Positions 32,416-46,774 of a DNA stretch of 64,000 nt are shown one piece after another. The stretch spans positions 3,100,318 through 3,164,317 of the forward strand of contig OY730441.1 of NCBI GenBank assembly GCA_963422665.1, given 5' to 3'. The position numbers and the translations under genes are program-made. Position 1 is the stretch's first letter, and each line of letters starts with the position of its first letter. The stretch is from Alphaproteobacteria bacterium (GTDB taxonomy: Bacteria; Pseudomonadota; Alphaproteobacteria; Bin95). The notes below the pieces were generated by a model that saw only the letters and a program-made list of their open reading frames with translations, made no database searches and was not told where the DNA came from.

Positions 32416-33432
32416 CTAGCTCCCCTGGCGCACCTTCGGGAACACGTCCTCGGCAAGCCGCTGCAGGGTCTCCAGCGCAAGGCTCTGCGGCATGCCCGAC
32501 CACTGGACGCTCATCACGACGTGGTTGACGCCGGTGGTGCGGGCCAGCGCGATCATCTGCTCCGCCACCTCGTCAGCGGAGCCGACAAGGAAGCGGTCGC
32601 GGGCGAGGTCGTCGAAGGCGGCGGTCAGGTCGGCATCGCCCGCCGGCATCGCCTTGTCCTGCCCCCAGGAGGCATAGACGGCGTATTTGCCCGCAAGGTG
32701 CGGGCCGCAAAGCCGAACCGCTTCCTCGCGGCTGTCGGCGACGAACACCTCGCGCCGGATCGGCAGCTCCCCGGGCATGGGCCTGCCGAGTTCGTCGAGC
32801 GCCCGGCGATAGACATCCAGTTGTTCGAGGATCGTCGAAATCCGGTTGTGGGGATTGATGTACCAGCAGGTCCCGAGCCGGGCCGCCCGGCGGATTGCGC
32901 CGTCGGCATTGGCGCCGATCCAGATTGGCGGATGCGGCTTCTGGACCGGTTTGGTAGGGCAAGACGCCTCCCGCAGCGCGAAATGCGAACCCGCCATGGT
33001 GACGGTCTCTTCCGTCCAGAGCCGCTTCATCGCCTCAAGGTTTTCCTCGAAGCGGCGAATCCGTTCCGGGCGGTTCGTGCCGAAACCGTCGAACTCCACA
33101 TCCCGGTAGCCAAGGCCGGCGCCGACGATCACGCGCCCGCCCGACATCACATCCATGGTCGCCAATTGCTCGGCCAGGTCGAGCGGCTTGTGCAGCGGCA
33201 GCAGGATGATGCCGGCATTGAGGCGCAGATTGGGCGCCTCCGCCATCATCCGGGTGAGATAGGGCAGTTGCTGGAAGTCCTGGTAGGGCCAGGCGCTGTA
33301 ATGGGAGCCCTTGGTCAGGGATGCGAACCCGAGGCGGTCCGCCAGCCGCACCTGTTCCGCAAGCTCCGCGAAGCGCTGCTGCATGTCGTCGCCGAGCTCG
33401 TACTGGCCGCGTGTCATCAATCCGAACTGCAT
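32416..33432 (-). CDS. LLM-class (luciferase-like) flavin-dependent oxidoreductase
   Basis: 338 aa, luciferase-like TIM-barrel sequence. Collinear paralogue of the adjacent gene (MQFGLMTRGQYELGDDM vs MQFVLAIRGQFPPGDDM). Confidence 0.85.
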   Translation of the reverse strand: MQFGLMTRGQYELGDDMQQRFAELAEQVRLADRLGFASLTKGSHYSAWPYQDFQQLPYLTRMMAEAPNLRLNAGIILLPLHKPLDLAEQLATMDVMSGGRVIVGAGLGYRDVEFDGFGTNRPERIRRFEENLEAMKRLWTEETVTMAGSHFALREASCPTKPVQKPHPPIWIGANADGAIRRAARLGTCWYINPHNRISTILEQLDVYRRALDELGRPMPGELPIRREVFVADSREEAVRLCGPHLAGKYAVYASWGQDKAMPAGDADLTAAFDDLARDRFLVGSADEVAEQMIALARTTGVNHVVMSVQWSGMPQSLALETLQRLAEDVFPKVRQGS

Positions 33433-33435
33433 GGC

Positions 33436-34446
33436 CTACAGCCCTTGCTTCACAAGGGGAACGACCTCTTCCGCCATCACATGCATCTGCTCGACGACGA
33501 CTTCTTGCGGCATTCCCGGCCACTGGATCGGGCAGGACAGCTGGTTGGCGCCGGTCGCCTTCATCATGCCCACGATCTGTTCGGCGACCTCGTCGGCGGA
33601 GCCGAAAAGGAAGCGGTCGCGGGCGAGCTCGTCGAACTCCTGGCCCAGGTCGTTGTCGCCTTCCGGCATGGCGTCGCCCTGGCCCCAGTCGTGATACGCC
33701 TTGTATTTGGCCTCCAGATAGGGCCGGGCGAGCCGGACCGCCTCGGCGCGGGTCCGCGCCACGAACATCTCTCGCGCCAGCGGCAATGTTTTCGGCCAGG
33801 GCTTGCCCGCTTCGTCCAGACCGCGCTTGTAGACTTCAATCTGGCGCAGGATCGTGTCGATGCGGTTGTGCGGGTTGATCATCCAGCTATCGGCAATATG
33901 CGCCGCACGGCGAATCGCCGGGTCGGCATTGGCGCCGATCCAGATGGGCGGCGGGCGGCGGGGCTTCAGCGAGCAGACGGCGCCGTCGAGCTCGAAATGC
34001 GAGCCCTTCATCGTCACCGCGTCCTCGGTCCACAAACGCCTGATCGCCTGGATATTCTCCACCAGGCGCGGCACCCGCTCCTCGCGGCCGGTGCCGAAGG
34101 CCTTGAACTCCACATCGCGGTAGCCGATGCCGACGCCGAGGATGAAGCGCCCGCCGGTGAACAGGTCCAGCGCTGCGGTCTGCTCGGCAATCTCCAGCGG
34201 CTTGTGCAGCGGCAACAGCACGATCGAGGTAAGGAAGGTCAGGCCGGGCGCTTCCGCCGCCGCGCGGGCGAGGAAGGGAATCTGCTGGATTTCCTGCCAG
34301 GGCGAGGAGCTGTAGTGGCAGGACTTGGCGATGCCGGTGAAACCGAGCTGTTTCGCCAGACGGACCTGCGCCATCAACTCTTCGAAACGCATATTCATGT
34401 CGTCTCCGGGCGGAAACTGGCCCCGGATCGCCAGAACGAACTGCAT
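33436..34446 (-). CDS. LLM-class flavin-dependent oxidoreductase (tandem paralogue)
   Basis: Start set to the ATG at 34444-34446 by alignment with the paralogue. The stop lies 3 nt from the next start. Confidence 0.85.
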   Translation of the reverse strand: MQFVLAIRGQFPPGDDMNMRFEELMAQVRLAKQLGFTGIAKSCHYSSSPWQEIQQIPFLARAAAEAPGLTFLTSIVLLPLHKPLEIAEQTAALDLFTGGRFILGVGIGYRDVEFKAFGTGREERVPRLVENIQAIRRLWTEDAVTMKGSHFELDGAVCSLKPRRPPPIWIGANADPAIRRAAHIADSWMINPHNRIDTILRQIEVYKRGLDEAGKPWPKTLPLAREMFVARTRAEAVRLARPYLEAKYKAYHDWGQGDAMPEGDNDLGQEFDELARDRFLFGSADEVAEQIVGMMKATGANQLSCPIQWPGMPQEVVVEQMHVMAEEVVPLVKQGL

Positions 34447-34527
34447 GGAAAGGAATCCCCGATTTGCGTTGCCGGCATTATGCACGAATTGGCGAGCGCG
34501 GCCGGCATGGCGGGCGTCTCCGGATCG

Positions 34528-38398: not shown

Positions 38399-38891
38399 TG
38401 TAGATGTCCAGAGCCACATCGACCCCGTCGTTCAGGAAGGTCACCGTCTTGGCTGCAATCCGCCATTCGCCGTCTTCGAGGCGGAGCCGGTAGCGGTAGC
38501 GCCCTCCATGCACGCGCGCGCCCTTGAGCGAGGCATATTGATGGACCGTCCAGGACGCGGCCGCCTCGACCTCGCCGTTGCCTGCGGAAAGGATCAGCAC
38601 ATTGCCGACCACATGGCATGAGCGCGGCAAGGGCAGCGAGGCGTAACTGTCCCGCGTGCCTATCCGGAATACCCGGTCGTCCAGCCCTGCCTTGCCCCGG
38701 ATGTAGATGAGCGCCAGCTCGGTCTCGGGATCGCGGGCCAGCGTTTCTTCGCCGGTCCAGGCAGGAACCCAGAAAGTCACGTCATCGGTGAACAGCGCCA
38801 GCCATTCCTCGAAGCGGCGCTCGTCCAGCAGCCAGGCGTCCATATGAACAACCCGCTCGACGGCAAGTTGCAGTTCCGGGTCGATCTTCAC
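38391..38891 (-). CDS. aromatic-ring-hydroxylating dioxygenase beta subunit
   Basis: NTF2-like beta-subunit sequence (LDERRFEEWLALFTDDVTFWVP). GTG at 38889-38891 overlaps the alpha-subunit TGA (GTGA). Confidence 0.8.
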   Translation of the reverse strand: MKIDPELQLAVERVVHMDAWLLDERRFEEWLALFTDDVTFWVPAWTGEETLARDPETELALIYIRGKAGLDDRVFRIGTRDSYASLPLPRSCHVVGNVLILSAGNGEVEAAASWTVHQYASLKGARVHGGRYRYRLRLEDGEWRIAAKTVTFLNDGVDVALDIYNV

Positions 38892-40210
38892 GCTGCGGCC
38901 CTGTCGGCGCGCGCCATAAGGCGGCGCCATTGGCGATATTGGCCGTGATAGAGCGTCTCGTGGTCCCAGCGCGGGCTGCTGGAAACCGGGCGGATACCGA
39001 GGTCGGTTGCGGCATCGTCGCCACCGTGTCGCATTGCCCCGAGCCCCCGCGACAGGTCGTTCCAACGGTCGAGACGCCCCTCGCATCCGACCTGAGTATC
39101 CTCCAGCGCCGCCGAATCATCCGGCGTCGCCAGGCCGCTCATCAGGAAGAAATCCCGAAACTTCGCCATTCGTGCAGTGCGCGCGGCCCGGCTCTCGCCC
39201 TTCGGCGCTATGCAATGGACCGTGATTTCAGTGCGGCTCGGCGATAGCGGGCGAATGACCCGGATCTGCGTCGAGGACTGGTCCATGAGGAACACGTTCG
39301 GGAAGAGCAGCAGATTGCGCCCCCGCGCGCACATCCAGGTCCATTTGCGCTCGCCAACCAGTGGCAGCAGGCGTTCGCGCGCTTCCCACAGCGGCGCCGA
39401 CTCGGGCATGCCCCGCTCGGTCCAGATCAGGTTGTGGCCGTTGCCGAGGTCGTAGCAACCATTGCGGGTCGCGCCCATGAAGCGGCTGTTATCGGTGCGC
39501 CTTGCACCGGTGGCGCCGGATTGCAGGTCGCGGCGCTGAATAGTGGTCACGAAGTTCCGGTGCACGGTGGAGACATGGTAGCCGTCCACGCCGTTTTCGG
39601 TCTGGAGCTTCCAGTTCCCGTCCACGACATAGCTTGCCTGCCCCGGAACGACCTCCATGCCATCGGGCGACTGGTCCGCGAGCAGGTCGATGACCGGGAC
39701 CGCCTCGCCCAGATGTTCGGCGAGCGGCGGCGCATCCGGATTGAGCGAGCCGAAGACAAAGCCCTTGTAGCTCTCGACCAACGGCACCGTCTTGAGGCTG
39801 AAATCCGCGCGCGACGCGCCGGACGGCAAGGCGGACGTACGCTCGTCCTTGATCTTCGTGCAGGCGCCGAAGGTGTCGTAGCACCAGCCGTGATAGCGGC
39901 ACACGAAGGCGGTCGCCTTGCCCTGACGAGTGGGCGTCAGGCGCGCGCCGCGATGGGCGCAGGCATTGAGCATGGCCCCGACAGAGCTGTCGGCGCGCCG
40001 ATTGACGATCACCGGTTGGCGGCCCATCCAGACGGCGAGGTAGTCGCCGGGTTCCGGGATCTGGCTCTCATGCGCCAGATAGATCCAATTGCCCTCGAAA
40101 ATCGCCTCGATTTCCGCAGCAAAGACATCCGGGTCGGTATAGATGGTCCGGTCCACCCGAAAAACGCCGTCGCCGGCGCGGTCGTCCACGAGCGATGCCA
40201 AGGCGCTCAT
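38888..40210 (-). CDS. Rieske-type aromatic-ring-hydroxylating dioxygenase alpha subunit
   Basis: Rieske CxH...CxxH motif (CAHRGARL ... CRYHGWCY), followed by the catalytic domain. Confidence 0.88.
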   Translation of the reverse strand: MSALASLVDDRAGDGVFRVDRTIYTDPDVFAAEIEAIFEGNWIYLAHESQIPEPGDYLAVWMGRQPVIVNRRADSSVGAMLNACAHRGARLTPTRQGKATAFVCRYHGWCYDTFGACTKIKDERTSALPSGASRADFSLKTVPLVESYKGFVFGSLNPDAPPLAEHLGEAVPVIDLLADQSPDGMEVVPGQASYVVDGNWKLQTENGVDGYHVSTVHRNFVTTIQRRDLQSGATGARRTDNSRFMGATRNGCYDLGNGHNLIWTERGMPESAPLWEARERLLPLVGERKWTWMCARGRNLLLFPNVFLMDQSSTQIRVIRPLSPSRTEITVHCIAPKGESRAARTARMAKFRDFFLMSGLATPDDSAALEDTQVGCEGRLDRWNDLSRGLGAMRHGGDDAATDLGIRPVSSSPRWDHETLYHGQYRQWRRLMARADRAAA

Positions 40211-40277
40211 CGCATTGCGTCTCCTCAGCGGATATCGCTCTATACCCCAAATCGCCGGCTATTGGGGAGGGAGGCGC

Positions 40278-41258
40278 ATGGCGCTCCGGCTTGAAGAGGG
40301 ACTGAAGCTCGGTATCCAGACGATCCACCGCGAAGGCGACGCGCCAACCGGCCCCTGGCAGCCGCGTATCGACGACCTCGTGACGTTCGTCGAAGACGTG
40401 GATGCCAAGGGCTTCGACGAAATCTGGTTGGGCGACCACGTCTCCTTTGCAATCCCGTTCCTCGACCCGTTGCTGATGATTGCGCAGGCCGCTGTGGCGA
40501 GCCGGCGGCTGGTCTTCGGCACCGGCGTCTATCTCCTGCCGCTGCGGCATCCGGGACCGGTCGCCAAGATGACAGCCACACTCGATCACCTGACCGAAGG
40601 ACGGTTCATCTTCGGCGTCGGCGTCGGCGGCGAATTCCCGAAGGAATACGAGGTATGCGGCGTGCCCCGCGAGGAGCGCGGACAGCGGCTGACCGAGGGC
40701 ATCGAAGCGATCCGCGCGCTTTGGTCGGGACGGCTGGCAAGCTATTGCGGGCGCCATTTCTCCTTCGAGGATGCGCCGATGCTGCCGCCGCCGAGGCAGC
40801 CGGGCGGTCCGCCGATCTGGTGCGGCGGTCGGCGCCCGCCGGCATTGCGGCGCGCCGGCCGGCTTGCGAACGGCTATGTCTCCTATGTGGTGACGCCGGA
40901 AATGTTCGCGCGGGCGCTCGACGAGATTGGGCGGGCGGCCGAAGCGGCAGGGCGCGGCGAGGCGCCGTTCGGCACCGGGCATCTGCTGTTCGCCCGCATC
41001 GACGACAGCTATGAGCGTGCGCTCGATATCGCGACCGGGTCGCTGTCCCGCCGCTATGCGATGGACTTCCGCAAGGCCGCGGCGCGCTACGCGGCGCTGG
41101 GCGCCGCCGAGCAGGTGGCCGGGCGCATCCGCGACTTCCACCAGGCGGGCGCCAGGCATGTTGTGGTCGATCTTGTCGGCCCCTATGACCGGCGCTCGGA
41201 ACAGATCGAACGTTTCGCCAGCGACGTCATGCCGCTCCTCGCCGACCTGAGGCGCTGA
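40278..41258 (+). CDS. LLM-class flavin-dependent oxidoreductase
   Basis: ATG at 40278 behind GGGGAGGGAGG. Luciferase-like sequence (FDEIWLGDHVSF ... LDHLTEGRFIFGVGVGG). Confidence 0.8.
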   Translation: MALRLEEGLKLGIQTIHREGDAPTGPWQPRIDDLVTFVEDVDAKGFDEIWLGDHVSFAIPFLDPLLMIAQAAVASRRLVFGTGVYLLPLRHPGPVAKMTATLDHLTEGRFIFGVGVGGEFPKEYEVCGVPREERGQRLTEGIEAIRALWSGRLASYCGRHFSFEDAPMLPPPRQPGGPPIWCGGRRPPALRRAGRLANGYVSYVVTPEMFARALDEIGRAAEAAGRGEAPFGTGHLLFARIDDSYERALDIATGSLSRRYAMDFRKAAARYAALGAAEQVAGRIRDFHQAGARHVVVDLVGPYDRRSEQIERFASDVMPLLADLRR

Positions 41259-42909
41259 CCGGCCAGCCCCGGACCGCCTCGGTCACGGAGAGCGTGCTGC
41301 CGAAGGAAGGGATGACACAGGAATGGCGTCCGGCCCCGCCGGCGACCATGACCATGAGCTGTTTCCGCTCGCTGACGATGCGCACGCCGTCCCTGCCGTC
41401 GAGCCCGACGAAGCGCTCCGGCACCTGTTGGCGGTAAAGCGCCATCTGCGCCTTGCCGATATGCCAGCGGGGGATAATCGCGCGCTCGATGATGAAGCGT
41501 TCGACATCCTCCTTCGACCAGCCCTCGCGCGCGATGACCTCGGCATGTTCGGGGCCGATCACGACCAGGTATTCGCCGTGGAAATAGGAGTTGTTGCAGC
41601 CGGGCGTGGCCATGGTGCCGCAGATCGTCAGCAAAACGTCTTCGGCCGTCTCGCTGTAGTGGTCGTTGACATTGTGCGGCCCCTCGACGCCGCAAAGCGT
41701 GACGGCGTTGTCCTCAGCCGCGATGCCGCGTTCGACCTGGAAGGGCGCCCAGGGGTTGGCTTCCTCGTTCTCCGCAAAGCAGTAGCTGTATTTGGCGGGC
41801 GTGCCCATGGTCGCGCGGTCGAGCACGCCGGGCTGGGCGCCCCCGATATTGGTCAGCACCAGCCGGACGGCGCGCCCGATCGCGGCATTGGCGTGCGCGC
41901 CCTGGCCCATGCAGTTGGTGCCGGAGGCAATGTCGAGTTCTTCCGCCATCGGCCCGTGCACGACGGTCAGCAGGCCGCAGGGATGGGTCGTGGACTGGAG
42001 CGCCTTCAGGTTCAGCCGCTCGGCGGTCATGGCGCGGGTCGCGGCCAGGATGACCGGCATCATCGCGGGCGCCGCCCCGGCCATCACGGCATTGGCGGCC
42101 ACCTTGCCGACCGTCGCAAGACCGAGGCGCGGTTCGATGAGGCCGATCTCCTCGTCGGGGTCGCGCCCGCCCAGCATGGCGTCCCGGCGGTCGGGCGTCG
42201 GCGCCACGAAGGGCAGTCCGTCGGTCCAGCCGCGCTGGTAGAAGACGCGGTTCAACGCTTCCGGCGAATCGGGGCCGGAAATCCGTTCCGGCGCGCCGGG
42301 CGCGTTGTAGTCGCCTTCAAAAAGCGAACGGTAGCGCATCCGCCCCCGCTTCGGCAGCGGACGGTTGCGGCATTCCTCCGCAAGCGCCGCCGCATCGGCC
42401 TCCAGCATGTGGACGATCTGGTCTATGGCCTCGTCGGCGATCTCCGCCACTCCCGCCGGAAGCAGCTTCGCCACCGGATGCGGCACGACGGCGATCGGCA
42501 GTCCGGCCATGCCGAGGCATTCCGCCTCCGCCTTGCCGAGGGCGAAGAATTCGTCGGTGCAGGTGACGGCTACGGGAATGCCGCGCTCTTCAAGCTTGAT
42601 CGCGTCATGGATACACCACGACGTGCAGGAGCCTCAGTCCCCGAAAGCGGCCGCCACAGCGTGGACCCGGTTGAGCCATTGCTGCGAAAAGTCGGCGGGC
42701 TCGCTTGCGATTTTCTGGAAGAGCTCGAACTCCAGGTGCGGGTAGCGCGCCTTCAGCCGGTGCGATACTTCCTCCAGGTAACGGTCGGCATTGGCCTTGA
42801 GGTTGGAGAACAGGCCGACGACCCCGATGTCCTCCAGGGGCCGTCGGGGCGCCAGCGCGCCGTTATTGCGCTGGTAGATGCCGCAGGGATTGATAAGCTC
42901 GCGCGCCAT
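41227..42909 (-). CDS. predicted UGSC-motif selenoprotein (in-frame UGA at 42634-42636) fused to a ~370-aa uncharacterised domain
   Basis: Track ORFs 42634..43287 and 41227..42510 share one frame. Hand translation across the single TGA gives ...[39 protein letters not shown]...[13 protein letters not shown]... Third-position GC looks coding-like on both sides. ATG at 42907-42909. Confidence 0.6.
42603..42623 (-). promoter_or_regulatory. candidate bacterial SECIS-like hairpin
   Basis: mRNA CGUCGUGG-UGUAU-CCAUGACG. The 8-bp stem (one G-U pair) starts 10 nt after the UGA, and the 5-nt loop contains GU. Confidence 0.4.
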
Positions 42910-42949
42910 GGGCGCAAACCTAGCGCCGGGATCGGAAGGAAGGCAAGAG

Positions 42950-43708
42950 ATGGGACGCCTCGAAGGGAAAACCGCGATCATTACCGGCGCCGGGTCCGGG
43001 ATCGCCAGGGCGGCCACCGGAATCTTCATCCGCGAGGGGGCGAAGGTGATGGTGGCGGAGATCGACGAGGCGGCGGGTGCAGCAACGGCGGCGGAAGCCG
43101 GTGCGGCCTTCCACCGCACCGACGTGACCGACGATGCCTCGGCGGCGGCTTGCGCCGCAGCGGCGATGGCCGAGTTCGGGCGCATCGACATCCTGTTCAA
43201 CTGCGCGGGCGGGTCGGTCGTCGAGGACACGAAGATCCACGAGGTCGATCTCGATGTCTGGAACCGCACAATCCCGCTCGACCTCAAGGGGCCGATGCTG
43301 ATGTGCCGTCATGTCGTGCCGCCCATGATTGCGGGCGGCGGCGGGGCTGTCATCAATATCTCCTCCGTGGTGGCGCTGCGCGGCAACCATCCCGCGCACA
43401 TCTATTCGGCGGCCAAGGGCGGCTTGATTTCCTTCACCCGCTCGCTTGCGGGCTCCTATTCGGACGAGGGCGTGCGGGCCAATGTGATCTGCCCCGGCCT
43501 GATCCTGACCGAGCGCATCCGCGCCCGCTACCGCCAGCCGAACGAGGAGCGGCCGCGGGAGGGATCGGTCTCGACATTCGAGTCATACCCGTTCGGCGTG
43601 GGCCAGCCCGAAGACATCGCCAATATCGGGCTCTTCCTTGCCTCCGACGAGTCGCGCATGGTCAACGGCGCAGTCATCCCGGCGGAGGGCGGTATCTCCG
43701 CCTATTGA
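42950..43708 (+). CDS. SDR-family oxidoreductase
   Basis: Rossmann motif TGAGSGIARA and catalytic YSAAK. ATG at 42950 behind GGAAGGAAGG. Confidence 0.88.
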   Translation: MGRLEGKTAIITGAGSGIARAATGIFIREGAKVMVAEIDEAAGAATAAEAGAAFHRTDVTDDASAAACAAAAMAEFGRIDILFNCAGGSVVEDTKIHEVDLDVWNRTIPLDLKGPMLMCRHVVPPMIAGGGGAVINISSVVALRGNHPAHIYSAAKGGLISFTRSLAGSYSDEGVRANVICPGLILTERIRARYRQPNEERPREGSVSTFESYPFGVGQPEDIANIGLFLASDESRMVNGAVIPAEGGISAY

Positions 43709-44220
43709 GCGGGGCGGGCGGCCAGGTGCGGCATCGCCAACCGGAACGGAATGAGCATAGCGAGCGCGAAGGCGGCTTTCCAGAGGAAGTCGCCGATGCC
43801 GAGCGTGATCCACGGCAGGCCCGTAGCGTAGAAGGCGATCGAGAAGAACAGCGCCGTATCGACCGCGGAACCCAGCATCGAGGAGACCAGCGGCGCCTGC
43901 CACCACGCCCGGCGCCGCATCCGGTCGAACACGGATACGTCCAGAAGCTGCGCCGCCAGGAACGCGAGGCCCGAGGCGACCGCGATGCGCGGCGTCGCAA
44001 GCAGGACGGACAGGACGACGGCCGCGGCGAACCCGACATAGACGACCCGCCGCGCCGTCGCCGCGCCGTGCATCCGGTTGGTGAGGTCAGTGACCAGGAA
44101 GCAGACGGGATAGGTGAAGGCGCCCCAGGTCAACCAGTCGCCGAGCGGATACTGGACGAGCACATTGGAGAGCGCGACCAGCCCGGCCATGGCGGCCAGC
44201 GGCAGGAGAGGAAGGCGCAC
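43702..44220 (-). CDS. yhhQ: queuosine-precursor transporter family (YhhQ/VUT, DUF165)
   Basis: 172 aa, multi-TM, family-like sequence (YPVCFLVTDLTNRMHG ... SMLGSAVDTALFFSIAF). GTG start. Confidence 0.78.
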   Translation of the reverse strand: MRLPLLPLAAMAGLVALSNVLVQYPLGDWLTWGAFTYPVCFLVTDLTNRMHGAATARRVVYVGFAAAVVLSVLLATPRIAVASGLAFLAAQLLDVSVFDRMRRRAWWQAPLVSSMLGSAVDTALFFSIAFYATGLPWITLGIGDFLWKAAFALAMLIPFRLAMPHLAARPAQ

Positions 44221-44302: not shown

Positions 44303-45010
44303 TCAATGCACGTCTTCCGGGCCGAGCATGGCGCGTTTCAGCTTCTCGAAGGTGAAACCCGGGCCGCGGCAGACATCCAGCACGATCTTTTCCTTCGCCG
44401 CGACCTCGGCCGCCGCCTTCGGCACCTCGCGCGCCCGGTCGATGGGAATGACGGCTGCGCCATGTTGATCCGCATGCACGAGATCGCCGCTGTTGACGAC
44501 CATGCCGGCGACGCTCACCTGTCCGCCGAAATCCACGACATGCACATGGGCGTGCGCCGGCTTGATCGAGCCCGCAACGGCCTGGAACCCGTCCGCCCAG
44601 TCGGGAATGTCGCGGATGCAGCCGTCCGTGACGACGCCGAGGCAGCCGAGCGCCTTGTGGATGTTGGAGTTGACCTCGCCCCAGAAGGCGCCGAAGCCGG
44701 CGCGCGGGCCGTCGAGGTCCTGCAGCACGACGATCTGCGGCGCCGGGCCGCCATGGGCGACATAGTCGTAATAGGAGACTCGGAGCTTCGCGGCGTCGCT
44801 GCCGACGACAGAGCTCGGGAACTGCGAGCGGATGGAGCCGGTGCGCGCATAGCCGACGATGGGCGGCAGGCCGGGAAACGGACAGACCAGCGGCTCGACG
44901 GTGAAGCCGGTATTCAGCCGGCTGCCGGCCACCACCTCCAGCGCGTTGCAGATCGTCGGGGTATCGAGCGCGCGGAGCGCCGTGAAATCGTCTTCGGTCA
45001 ATGCGGACAA
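44303..45010 (-). CDS. RraA-family protein (HMG/CHA aldolase-like)
   Basis: 235 aa with RraA-like motifs (DTPTICNALEVV ... GAFWGEVNSNIHKALGCLGVVTDGCIRD). TTG start. Confidence 0.78.
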   Translation of the reverse strand: MSALTEDDFTALRALDTPTICNALEVVAGSRLNTGFTVEPLVCPFPGLPPIVGYARTGSIRSQFPSSVVGSDAAKLRVSYYDYVAHGGPAPQIVVLQDLDGPRAGFGAFWGEVNSNIHKALGCLGVVTDGCIRDIPDWADGFQAVAGSIKPAHAHVHVVDFGGQVSVAGMVVNSGDLVHADQHGAAVIPIDRAREVPKAAAEVAAKEKIVLDVCRGPGFTFEKLKRAMLGPEDVH

Positions 45011-45090: not shown

Positions 45091-45843
45091 TCATCGGCCG
45101 GTAAAGGCGGGCTTGCGCTTCTCGCGGAACGCGCGCCCGCCTTCCTTCTGGTCCTCGCTGCGGCTGATCGAGAGCAGCTCGCGCCGCGCCAGCGCCTGGA
45201 GCTCCGAGGGGCCGCGCGCCACCACGGTATCGCGCACGAAACGCTTCACTGTCCTGAGCACGAGCGGCGCGCTGTCCCGCAGGACGGTTGCATATTCCCT
45301 CGCAGCGGCCATCAGCTCGCCTCGCGGCACGGCGCGGTTGACCATGCCGATCTCGGCGGCGCGTTCTCCGTCGAAATGCCGTCCCGTCATCATGAATTCC
45401 ATCGCGAGCTTGTGCGGGATACGCGCCGCCAGACCCGCAATGAGGCCGCCGCAAAAGCCGATCTGGGCCTCGGGATAGAAGAAGTCCGCAGTCTCGTCGG
45501 CGACGGCGAGATCGCAGAATTCGACCAGGCAGAATGCCCCGCCGACGCAGTAGCCATGCACGGCGGCGACGATCGGCTTGTCCACCATCACGCCGACGCC
45601 CGGCATACATTCCCAGAGTTCCGGGTCGCGGGGCGGGTCGCGCAGGTCGGCGCCGACCGAGAAGGCCCGTTCGCCGGCGCCGGTCAGGATCGCGACGCGG
45701 TCGTCGCCCTCCTGCAGCCGCTCGAAGGCCTCGACGAGTTCGGCGACGAGCCCGTTCGACAGCGCATTCATCTTGTCGGGCCGGTTGAGCGTAATCGTTG
45801 CGATTCCGTCTTCGGAGCGATAGTCGATCAGCGGCGCACTCAC
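45091..45843 (-). CDS. enoyl-CoA hydratase/isomerase family protein
   Basis: Crotonase fold sequence (ITLNRPDKMNAL, GAGERAFSVGADL, VHGYCVGGAF). Confidence 0.88.
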   Translation of the reverse strand: MSAPLIDYRSEDGIATITLNRPDKMNALSNGLVAELVEAFERLQEGDDRVAILTGAGERAFSVGADLRDPPRDPELWECMPGVGVMVDKPIVAAVHGYCVGGAFCLVEFCDLAVADETADFFYPEAQIGFCGGLIAGLAARIPHKLAMEFMMTGRHFDGERAAEIGMVNRAVPRGELMAAAREYATVLRDSAPLVLRTVKRFVRDTVVARGPSELQALARRELLSISRSEDQKEGGRAFREKRKPAFTGR

Positions 45844-45907: not shown

Positions 45908-46774
45908 TTGGCCGAACGACCGCAGGTTGAGGCGCTGTTTCACGAGCCGAGTTCGACGGTGAGCTACATCGTGTCCTGCCCCGAGACGGGCAGGGCCGCC
46001 ATCGTCGATCCGGTGCTCGACTACGACATCCATTCCGGACGGACCGAAACCGTATTCGCGGAGCGGCTCATGGAGCGGGTCCGCGGGCGCGGGCTTGCCG
46101 TCGAGTGGATACTCGAAACCCATGTCCACGCCGATCATCTGAGCGCCGGCGCCTTCCTGAAGCGAGCCCTTGGCGGTCGAACTGCTATCGGCAGCCACAT
46201 CGTCGATGTGCAGGCGGTCTTCAAGGACATCTACAACCTGCCGCCGGAATTCCTGACCGACGGTTCCCAATTCGACCGGCTGTTCGACGACGAGGAGCGG
46301 TTCCGGTTCGGCCGTCTGGAAGCGCGGGTGTTGCACACGCCCGGCCATACGCCGGCCTGCGTTACCTATGTCATCGGCGATTCCGCGTTCACGGGCGACA
46401 CGGTCTTCATGCCGGATTTCGGCACGGCGCGCTGCGACTTCCCCGGCGGCGACGCAGCCGCGCTCTACCGTTCGGCGCGGCGCATCCTTTCGCTGCCGCC
46501 CGAAACGCGCATCTTCGTCGGCCATGACTACGCGCCCGGCGGTCGGGCGGTCGCCTGGGAGACGACGGTGGCGGAGGAGCGCAGGGCGAACCGGCATGTA
46601 CGCGACGGCATCGACGAGCGGGCCTTCGTCGCCATGCGCACCGAACGGGACAGGACGCTGGACGTGCCGGCGCTGCTGCTGCCGTCGATCCAGGTCAATA
46701 TGCGCGGCGGCGACCTGCCGGAGCCGGAAAGCAACGGCCGCGCCTATCTCAAGATTCCGCTCAACGCCTTCTGA
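45908..46774 (+). CDS. MBL-fold hydrolase, persulfide dioxygenase-like
   Basis: HxHxDH motif (THVHADH), TPGHTP, and the long C-terminal extension typical of the ~290-aa proteobacterial type. TTG start. Confidence 0.78.
   Translation: MAERPQVEALFHEPSSTVSYIVSCPETGRAAIVDPVLDYDIHSGRTETVFAERLMERVRGRGLAVEWILETHVHADHLSAGAFLKRALGGRTAIGSHIVDVQAVFKDIYNLPPEFLTDGSQFDRLFDDEERFRFGRLEARVLHTPGHTPACVTYVIGDSAFTGDTVFMPDFGTARCDFPGGDAAALYRSARRILSLPPETRIFVGHDYAPGGRAVAWETTVAEERRANRHVRDGIDERAFVAMRTERDRTLDVPALLLPSIQVNMRGGDLPEPESNGRAYLKIPLNAF

Follow-up and report, generated by a model that had tools for sequence, protein, structure and literature searches.

The "UGSC-containing protein" is a predicted selenoprotein of unknown function that has ranked since 2007-2008 among the most abundant predicted selenoprotein families of aquatic metagenomes (PMC2398784, PMC1976440), and for which a thioredoxin fold has been suggested (PMC2398784). 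The family is represented by two models: NF041046, "UGSC family (seleno)protein", an equivalog model of about 147 positions built on stand-alone small proteins, and Pfam PF24696, "UGSC", which has 172 positions; the stand-alone proteins are 190-216 aa long. Here we analyze a 64,000-nucleotide stretch of the genome of an alphaproteobacterium (GCA_963422665.1, contig OY730441.1, positions 3,100,318 to 3,164,317; hereafter the window), in which a minus-strand gene at 41227..42909 carries an in-frame UGA that opens the same U-G-S-C motif, and as in the described family, forms with Cys in place of selenocysteine (Sec) exist. While the family proteins are small and stand-alone, the product of this gene has 560 residues with UGSC at the N-terminus, and we conclude that it adds a new, fused member to the already known UGSC family of selenoproteins.

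Two other kinds of system provide functional analogies. The GrdB and PrdB selenoproteins (selenoprotein B of glycine and D-proline reductase) work with a substrate-handling partner and are re-reduced by the thioredoxin system. Thiol-dependent enzymes are also known that are fused to their own reductant, as in the peroxiredoxin-glutaredoxin and methionine sulfoxide reductase-thioredoxin proteins. Such systems unite a catalytic domain that carries a conserved Cys with a CxxC or UxxC module, in either order or as neighboring genes, and the same appears to hold for UGSC and the C-terminal domain of the window protein, which we call X; other members of the X family, fused to other disulfide reductases, extend the parallel. 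The analogy with GrdB and PrdB is functional only: a UxxC Sec motif is common to both, as listed in Table 2 of the metagenomic survey (PMC2398784), but we detected no sequence similarity, and PF07355, the family of GrdB and PrdB, gave no match to the full window protein at E <= 0.01. Finally, a "UGSC/Unknown_1 fusion" is mentioned in Fig. S1A of the selenoproteome from Global Ocean Sampling (GOS) (PMC2398784); this is probably the same architecture as UGSC-X.

Translation of the minus strand from 42909 to 41227 yields 561 codons whose sole internal stop is the TGA of codon 92 (42634..42636, or 42636..42634 in the direction of reading). The first-pass annotation of this DNA had proposed that two minus-strand open reading frames (ORFs), 42634..43287 and 41227..42510, lie in the same frame with no stop between them besides this TGA, and that joining them gives a 560-residue product with UGA as the first residue of U-G-S-C; our translation reproduced both points. 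The coding sequence starts at ATG 42909, homologues aligning from residue 1, and it ends with a stop codon at 41227..41229, the last ~10 residues not being conserved among homologues. The residues AAAFGD precede the TGA, the motif D-U-G-S-C-T-S-W runs across it, and Cys95 (42625..42627, minus strand) is the partner of residue 92 in the U-x-x-C pair. A scan of the window for other same-frame ORF pairs returned ordinary adjacent genes only.

We then examined the codon across related genomes, scanning one genome per GTDB species (395 relatives) and analyzing the best 80 loci. In these 80 loci tblastn gave uninterrupted matches to query residues 1 to ~550, with amino-acid identities of 48-94%. The loci span the Alphaproteobacteria (including Rhodospirillales), the Gammaproteobacteria (Pseudomonadales, Ca. 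Azotimanducaceae and Immundisolibacterales), the Deltaproteobacteria/Thermodesulfobacteriota and one Ca. Sulfotelmatobacter metagenome-assembled genome; L008, L010, L014 and L015 lie on complete chromosomes of congeneric metagenome-assembled genomes (OZ224045.1, OZ244041.1, OZ253490.1 and OZ219786.1, respectively). The codon-92 column holds TGA in every one of the 80 orthologous loci, each from a different species genome (81/81 with the window), within the motif D-U-G-[S/A]-C-T-S-W, and the Cys95 column holds Cys in 80/80, as it does in at least 90% of UGSC-domain sequences. The same arrangement, TGA followed by the hairpin described below, recurs at 10 further UGSC sites in stand-alone or reversed-order genes. 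In the wider family the column is occupied by Cys in 16 of 23 full-length representatives, and the full-length homologue P0007 reads DCGSC; Cys or Sec at this column was what the first-pass annotation had suggested looking for in homologues.

Selection on the protein was gauged from the ratio of nonsynonymous to synonymous differences (pN/pS) against five congeneric genomes of 83-89% nucleotide identity. The ratio was 0.13-0.21 for codons 1-91 and 0.09-0.17 for codons 134-545, while the 41 codons from the UGA to the next ATG (codons 93-133) gave 0.00-0.03, and no other part of the protein is under tighter constraint.

A recent nonsense mutation in a Cys-containing gene, or a base-calling artefact, would also leave a gene that a standard gene caller splits, and more than 100 homologues are indeed annotated as N-terminally truncated, with lengths of 410-455 aa. 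Among the 120 closest homologues listed in the database, which holds more than 1000 in total, all except P0007 are annotated as proteins of 366-473 aa that start after the Sec codon, and in the eight truncated homologues that we inspected the annotated starts fall on differing Met residues shortly after the Sec position. Such varied starts are the signature of gene callers stopping at UGA. Furthermore, a pseudogene or a sequencing error is at odds with the TGA at the same codon in 80/80 species genomes and at the 10 additional UGSC sites, with strong purifying selection on both sides of the TGA and with an RNA-constrained hairpin after it. We regard this explanation, for which the conservation of the TGA and the pN/pS values are already a refutation, as having a negligible chance of being correct; the sequencing error that the first-pass annotation had allowed for is excluded by the TGA in all 80 loci.

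It might also be proposed that the locus holds two real genes, a 91-residue protein ended by the UGA and a second protein started at ATG 42510 or at another internal start. That ATG is present, and gene callers do predict products from internal starts of this kind. On the other hand, the internal start positions vary among homologues, the Cys homologues are continuous, and the 41 codons that separate the TGA from this ATG, which would be noncoding under this proposal, are precisely those with the lowest pN/pS. Moreover, the Pfam UGSC domain (residues 5-170) spans the TGA, and the halves therefore cannot be independent genes, nor are they the unrelated separate halves that the first-pass annotation had named as a possible outcome. 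Taken together, the 80/80 TGA conservation, the Cys homologues and the pN/pS values exclude the pseudogene, sequencing-error and two-gene readings alike, and we consider the last of these scarcely credible.

A bacterial selenocysteine insertion sequence (SECIS) hairpin recruits SelB carrying Sec-tRNA(Sec), and such a hairpin, CGUCGUGG-UGUAU-CCAUGACG, lies in frame directly downstream of the UGA (42603..42623, minus strand), as judged from folding, comparative pairing and codon entropy. Codons 96-103 (T-S-W-C-I-H-D-A) contain the whole hairpin and codons 96-102 its core stem and loop; the core stem of 7 bp pairs 42622..42616 with 42610..42604. The stem begins 11 nt after the UGA and the 5-nt apical loop, U-G-U-A-U, 18 nt after it, with a folding energy of -8.7 kcal/mol for a stem of 7 bp or -11.1 kcal/mol for one of 8 bp. 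Published constraints on bacterial SECIS elements are an apical loop of 3-9 nt, a stem of 4-16 bp, a distance of 16-37 nt between UGA and loop, a minimum free energy of <= -7.5 kcal/mol, and a G within the first two loop positions that is usually followed by G or U (PMC13188914); the window hairpin lies within all of them.

The comparative evidence for the hairpin is of two kinds. The seven core pairs are formed in 67/67 distinct sequences without a single broken pair; pair 15-33 changes from G-C to A-U by a compensatory change in 3 of these sequences, and pair 18-30 is G-U, G-C or A-U but never mismatched, G-U being replaced by G-C or A-U in 6 sequences. This covariation is modest, because variation among the 67 sequences is low. 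Secondly, the codon entropy of codons 96-102 is 0.17-0.33 bits, versus a mean of 1.19 bits over the 138 other columns that are conserved at 95% or more (81 sequences, including the window). Within the hairpin, 78/81 sequences use ACG for Thr and 79/81 use TCG for Ser, and His is CAT and Cys is TGT despite a genome of 68% GC, while Ser94, two codons upstream, has an entropy of 1.54 bits. The nearly frozen synonymous sites of codons 96-102 thus point to selection on the RNA. Folded as a whole, the 81 nt are not more stable than shuffled sequences (z = -0.31), and it is sequence comparison, rather than thermodynamics, that supports the hairpin. Rfam gave no SECIS family at the gathering threshold over the whole window nor at E <= 10 over 42300..42900, where the matches at that cutoff were chance matches to small RNAs and were set aside.

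Given a UGA that is read through, it was reasonable to consider that it is decoded as a standard amino acid, by reassignment to Trp or Gly or by near-cognate readthrough, and the window yielded no Sec machinery, as this proposal would have it. However, TGA is the ordinary stop codon of several neighboring genes in the window, and this, together with the Cys at the homologous column, means that a reassigned genetic code is not the explanation. Trp stands at the column in 0/23 full-length representatives, Gly occurs in one, which has lost the motif, and the hairpin conforms to the SECIS constraints.

A further observation against standard decoding comes from a related metagenomic cluster (L090:829-9053 and L091:729-8953), in which tRNA-Sec and selB are embedded among two tandem pairs of UGSC and X genes in the order UGSC-Sec, X, TctC, UGSC-Sec, X, amidohydrolase (Amidohydro_2), tRNA-Sec(UCA), selB and Pyr_redox_2. 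The tRNA-Sec, with anticodon UCA, lies at L090 6094-6190 and selB at L090 6195-8147; the SelB encoded in L090/L091 shares 36% identity with its E. coli counterpart across 632 residues (E = 2e-96) and contains SelB beta-barrel and winged-helix domains. Decoding of the UGA as a standard amino acid is accordingly very improbable. We conclude that the in-frame UGA almost certainly encodes selenocysteine in a 560-residue UGSC-family protein; short of the remaining genome sequence, bioinformatics could hardly make this assignment firmer. The selenoprotein that the first-pass annotation had predicted is thus supported by the conservation of the TGA in 80/80 loci, by the Cys homologues and by the constrained hairpin.

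The N-terminal third of the protein belongs to UGSC at the level of the domain. With Cys replacing the TGA, PF24696 matches residues 5-170 (42400..42897, minus strand) with 140.8 bits against a cutoff of 25, and NF041046 matches residues 30-169 with 127.7 bits against its curated cutoff of 125, so the family name given in the first-pass annotation was the correct one, matched by both models. The window protein does not have the stand-alone architecture, and it belongs to the family through its domain without being an equivalog of those small proteins. UGSC accounts for the first ~170 residues only; the remaining ~390 residues belong to a different, unnamed domain, X, which the first-pass annotation did not cover. 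In an alignment of stand-alone UGSC proteins the Sec column is invariably Cys or Sec.

An AlphaFold2 model of the Cys homologue P0007 (predicted local distance difference test, pLDDT, 90; predicted template modeling score, pTM, 0.88) gives the domain a three-layer alpha/beta architecture, with position 92 at the N-terminus of helix 93-108, following strand 84-88. When the full model was compared with solved structures by Foldseek, the N-terminal domain weakly matched flavodoxin-like three-layer alpha/beta proteins (WrbA, flavodoxin domains), with template modeling (TM) scores of 0.4-0.5 normalized by target and E ~1e-3. All matches were weak, and the top 50 included no thioredoxin-fold entry. 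The window protein would differ from the known enzyme-reductant fusions in that neither of its domains looks thioredoxin-fold in the model, the N-terminal domain having flavodoxin-like matches only. Protein and domain-profile searches of the PDB found no sequence match for UGSC.

Domain X (residues ~205-550; 41260..42297, minus strand) has no match in Pfam, even at E <= 10, nor in the PDB, whether searched as a single sequence or as a profile, and in NCBIfam the full-length protein matched UGSC alone and no family covering X. AlphaFold2 predicts a well-defined structure for window residues 185-560 (pLDDT 86, pTM 0.88). Class-I fumarate hydratase and the "Toblerone-fold" cyclic amide hydrolases were considered as relatives and rejected, the similarity (TM ~0.2, root mean square deviation 11-18 Å) not amounting to homology, and alignment of the two halves of X with hhalign found no internal repeat. 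The family is nevertheless large in number: a profile search of 1.84 billion representatives returned 6961 clusters at the 50% level, 1885 of them below 1e-30. Many members are stand-alone proteins of 340-370 aa, and the source names that we saw for relatives of X were all "hypothetical protein".

Conservation within X, and the fusions described below, were assessed on the best 150 of the 6961 family representatives, clustered at 50% identity. About 40 positions are conserved at 90% or more, most of them Gly, Pro or Ala, and with them the polar residues D230, N341, R346, D364 and E380. In the fused subfamily the conserved polar residues include D230, H309, N341, R346, D364, R365, K373, E380, E409, N413, N415, H417, E454 and H455, of which H309, K373, E409, N413, N415, H417, E454 and H455 are among the invariant ones. 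Cys377, in the sequence K-Y-S-Y-C-F-A-E-N-E (41779..41781, minus strand), is Cys in 133 of the 150 representatives and is retained at a level of 90% or more among the fused proteins, and on this basis it is a candidate redox or catalytic residue. Cys311 (in TTHPC) is present in the window protein, and just 26/150 representatives have Cys there. The pattern of conservation suggests that X is an enzyme-like module with a conserved Cys377. As an aside on architecture, the 717-aa P0190 contains two tandem copies of X in one chain, with the conserved Cys shifted by one position (YTCV), and P0232 (741 aa) and P0257 (713 aa), each with three separate stretches matching the profile, may be similar.

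UGSC and X occur together in more than one arrangement. The window gene has the order UGSC-X, while other proteins have the reversed order X-UGSC; the predicted proteins of the latter end at GD directly before Sec, and a downstream fragment in the same frame comprises the rest of UGSC, as in L084, where the junction reads GD-TGA-GGCTSWSVHD and the hairpin is present. Stand-alone X genes adjoin a stand-alone, TGA-split UGSC gene in 5/5 sampled loci, often as tandem pairs. In P0169 the fusion partner of X is a Pyr_redox_2 module that is thioredoxin-reductase-like and has a CAVC motif, and in P0253 it is a ferredoxin:thioredoxin reductase catalytic chain. The GOS paper describes neither the reversed order, nor the gene pairing, nor the fusions to thioredoxin-reductase-like or ferredoxin:thioredoxin-reductase-like modules (PMC2398784). 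Three unrelated partners of disulfide-reductase type, two orders of fusion and gene pairing suggest that X needs a thiol or selenol reductant and that UGSC supplies it. From these associations we infer, with moderate support, that UGSC is a dedicated selenol/thiol redox partner of X.

A mechanism can be proposed on this basis. The UGA of codon 92 would be recoded as Sec by the SECIS hairpin inside the coding sequence, and the UGSC domain would present Sec92-x-x-Cys95 as a redox pair at the N-terminus of a helix. Sec92 might then attack an oxidized or substrate-bound intermediate at Cys377 of X, after which a selenenylsulfide with Cys95 would form, to be re-reduced by a thioredoxin-type system. 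The whole protein would in this case be a Sec-dependent reductase acting on a small-molecule substrate. We judge it very probable that the locus is a single 560-residue selenoprotein gene whose UGA is recoded via the SECIS element within the coding sequence and whose UGSC domain is a putative redox partner of X. The broader proposal, that UGSC and X make up a widespread two-component Sec-dependent reductase in which X is a new enzyme family needing a U/CxxC donor, either UGSC or a fused reductase-like module, is evenly balanced in our estimation.

Several observations weigh against this account of the gene. With E. coli SelA, SelB and SelD as queries, tblastn detected none of selA, selB and selD, either in the 64-kb window or in any of the 80 loci, and ARAGORN found no tRNA-Sec in the window, whose one tRNA is for Thr, or in the 60 of the 80 loci that were scanned. 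No solved structure resembles X, either by Foldseek (best TM ~0.2) or by PDB profile search. At position 279 (42073-42075), within X, 93% of the 150 representatives have Cys, in the sequence NAVMAGC, but the window protein has Ala, and it reads NAVMAG-A there, as do its close relatives. The C/U-x-x-C motif is lost in 7 of the 23 full-length representatives, and in several full-length UGSC-X proteins (P0141, P0171, P0175, P0234, P0268 and P0277) the Sec column is occupied by Ile, Ser, Gly or Asn; thus a non-redox role for the N-terminal domain may also exist. Lastly, the genomic neighborhoods are heterogeneous, including genes for a PhnD-like binding protein, GMC oxidoreductase, amidohydrolase, TctA, acyl-CoA ligase and sulfatase, and across the 80 loci no one gene emerged as a conserved operon partner of the fused gene. 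The ARAGORN scan also returned two overlong calls, a 92-nt "tRNA-Pro(cgg)" at L008:1519-1610 and a 96-nt "tRNA-Ala(cgc)" at L040:5751-5846, which may be spurious calls in GC-rich DNA or else tRNAs whose arms are atypical.

Some of these observations would fit a genuine selenoprotein in which the roles are divided differently, UGSC itself being the catalyst (for instance a stand-alone thiol/selenol oxidoreductase or a metal- or metalloid-binding site) and X serving in regulation, scaffolding or substrate delivery. UGSC has been described as an independent family, some N-terminal domains linked to X are without the redox motif, and the window protein is without the otherwise conserved Cys279 of X. 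But the pattern of conserved residues in X, with its ~40 positions and the invariant polar residues of the fused subfamily, is typical of an active site, and two further types of disulfide reductase, being donors of electrons and not substrates, likewise occur fused to X. We therefore consider catalysis by UGSC itself unlikely, and favor the reading in which UGSC is the reductant and X the enzyme.

The genes around the selenoprotein gene were assigned by Pfam. Its 3' end overlaps by 32 nt (41227-41258) that of a convergent gene on the plus strand for a luciferase-like monooxygenase (40143..41258), beyond which lies a Rieske ring-hydroxylating oxygenase (38888..40210, minus). On the upstream side are a divergent short-chain dehydrogenase (42878..43708, plus), which probably starts near 42950, a Vut_1 transporter (43702..44220, minus), an RraA-like aldolase (44303..45010, minus), an enoyl-CoA hydratase (45091..45843, minus) and a metallo-beta-lactamase (45908..46774, plus). 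Within 10 kb of the selenoprotein gene there are three paralogues of the luciferase-like monooxygenase (32416-34485 and 40143-41258). A luciferase-like monooxygenase is also found near the gene in 35 of the 80 loci, mostly directly adjacent and in two alphaproteobacterial clades (among L001-L039); by orientation, 18 of these ORFs are divergent and upstream and 18 are convergent and downstream. A short-chain dehydrogenase is nearby in 23/80 loci.

The window gene is a textbook case of a selenoprotein broken by automatic annotation, and the family to which it belongs is systematically mis-annotated. UGSC is now genetically tied to one unnamed domain, in both orders of fusion, as neighboring genes and once beside tRNA-Sec and selB, and "unknown function" can be replaced with a testable hypothesis, that of a two-component reductase with Sec92, Cys95 and Cys377 as candidate residues. 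If this hypothesis is true, UGSC-X would represent a counterpart, in aerobic proteobacteria, of the glycine and proline reductases of clostridia, a reductase that is currently invisible since gene callers split or truncate its gene.

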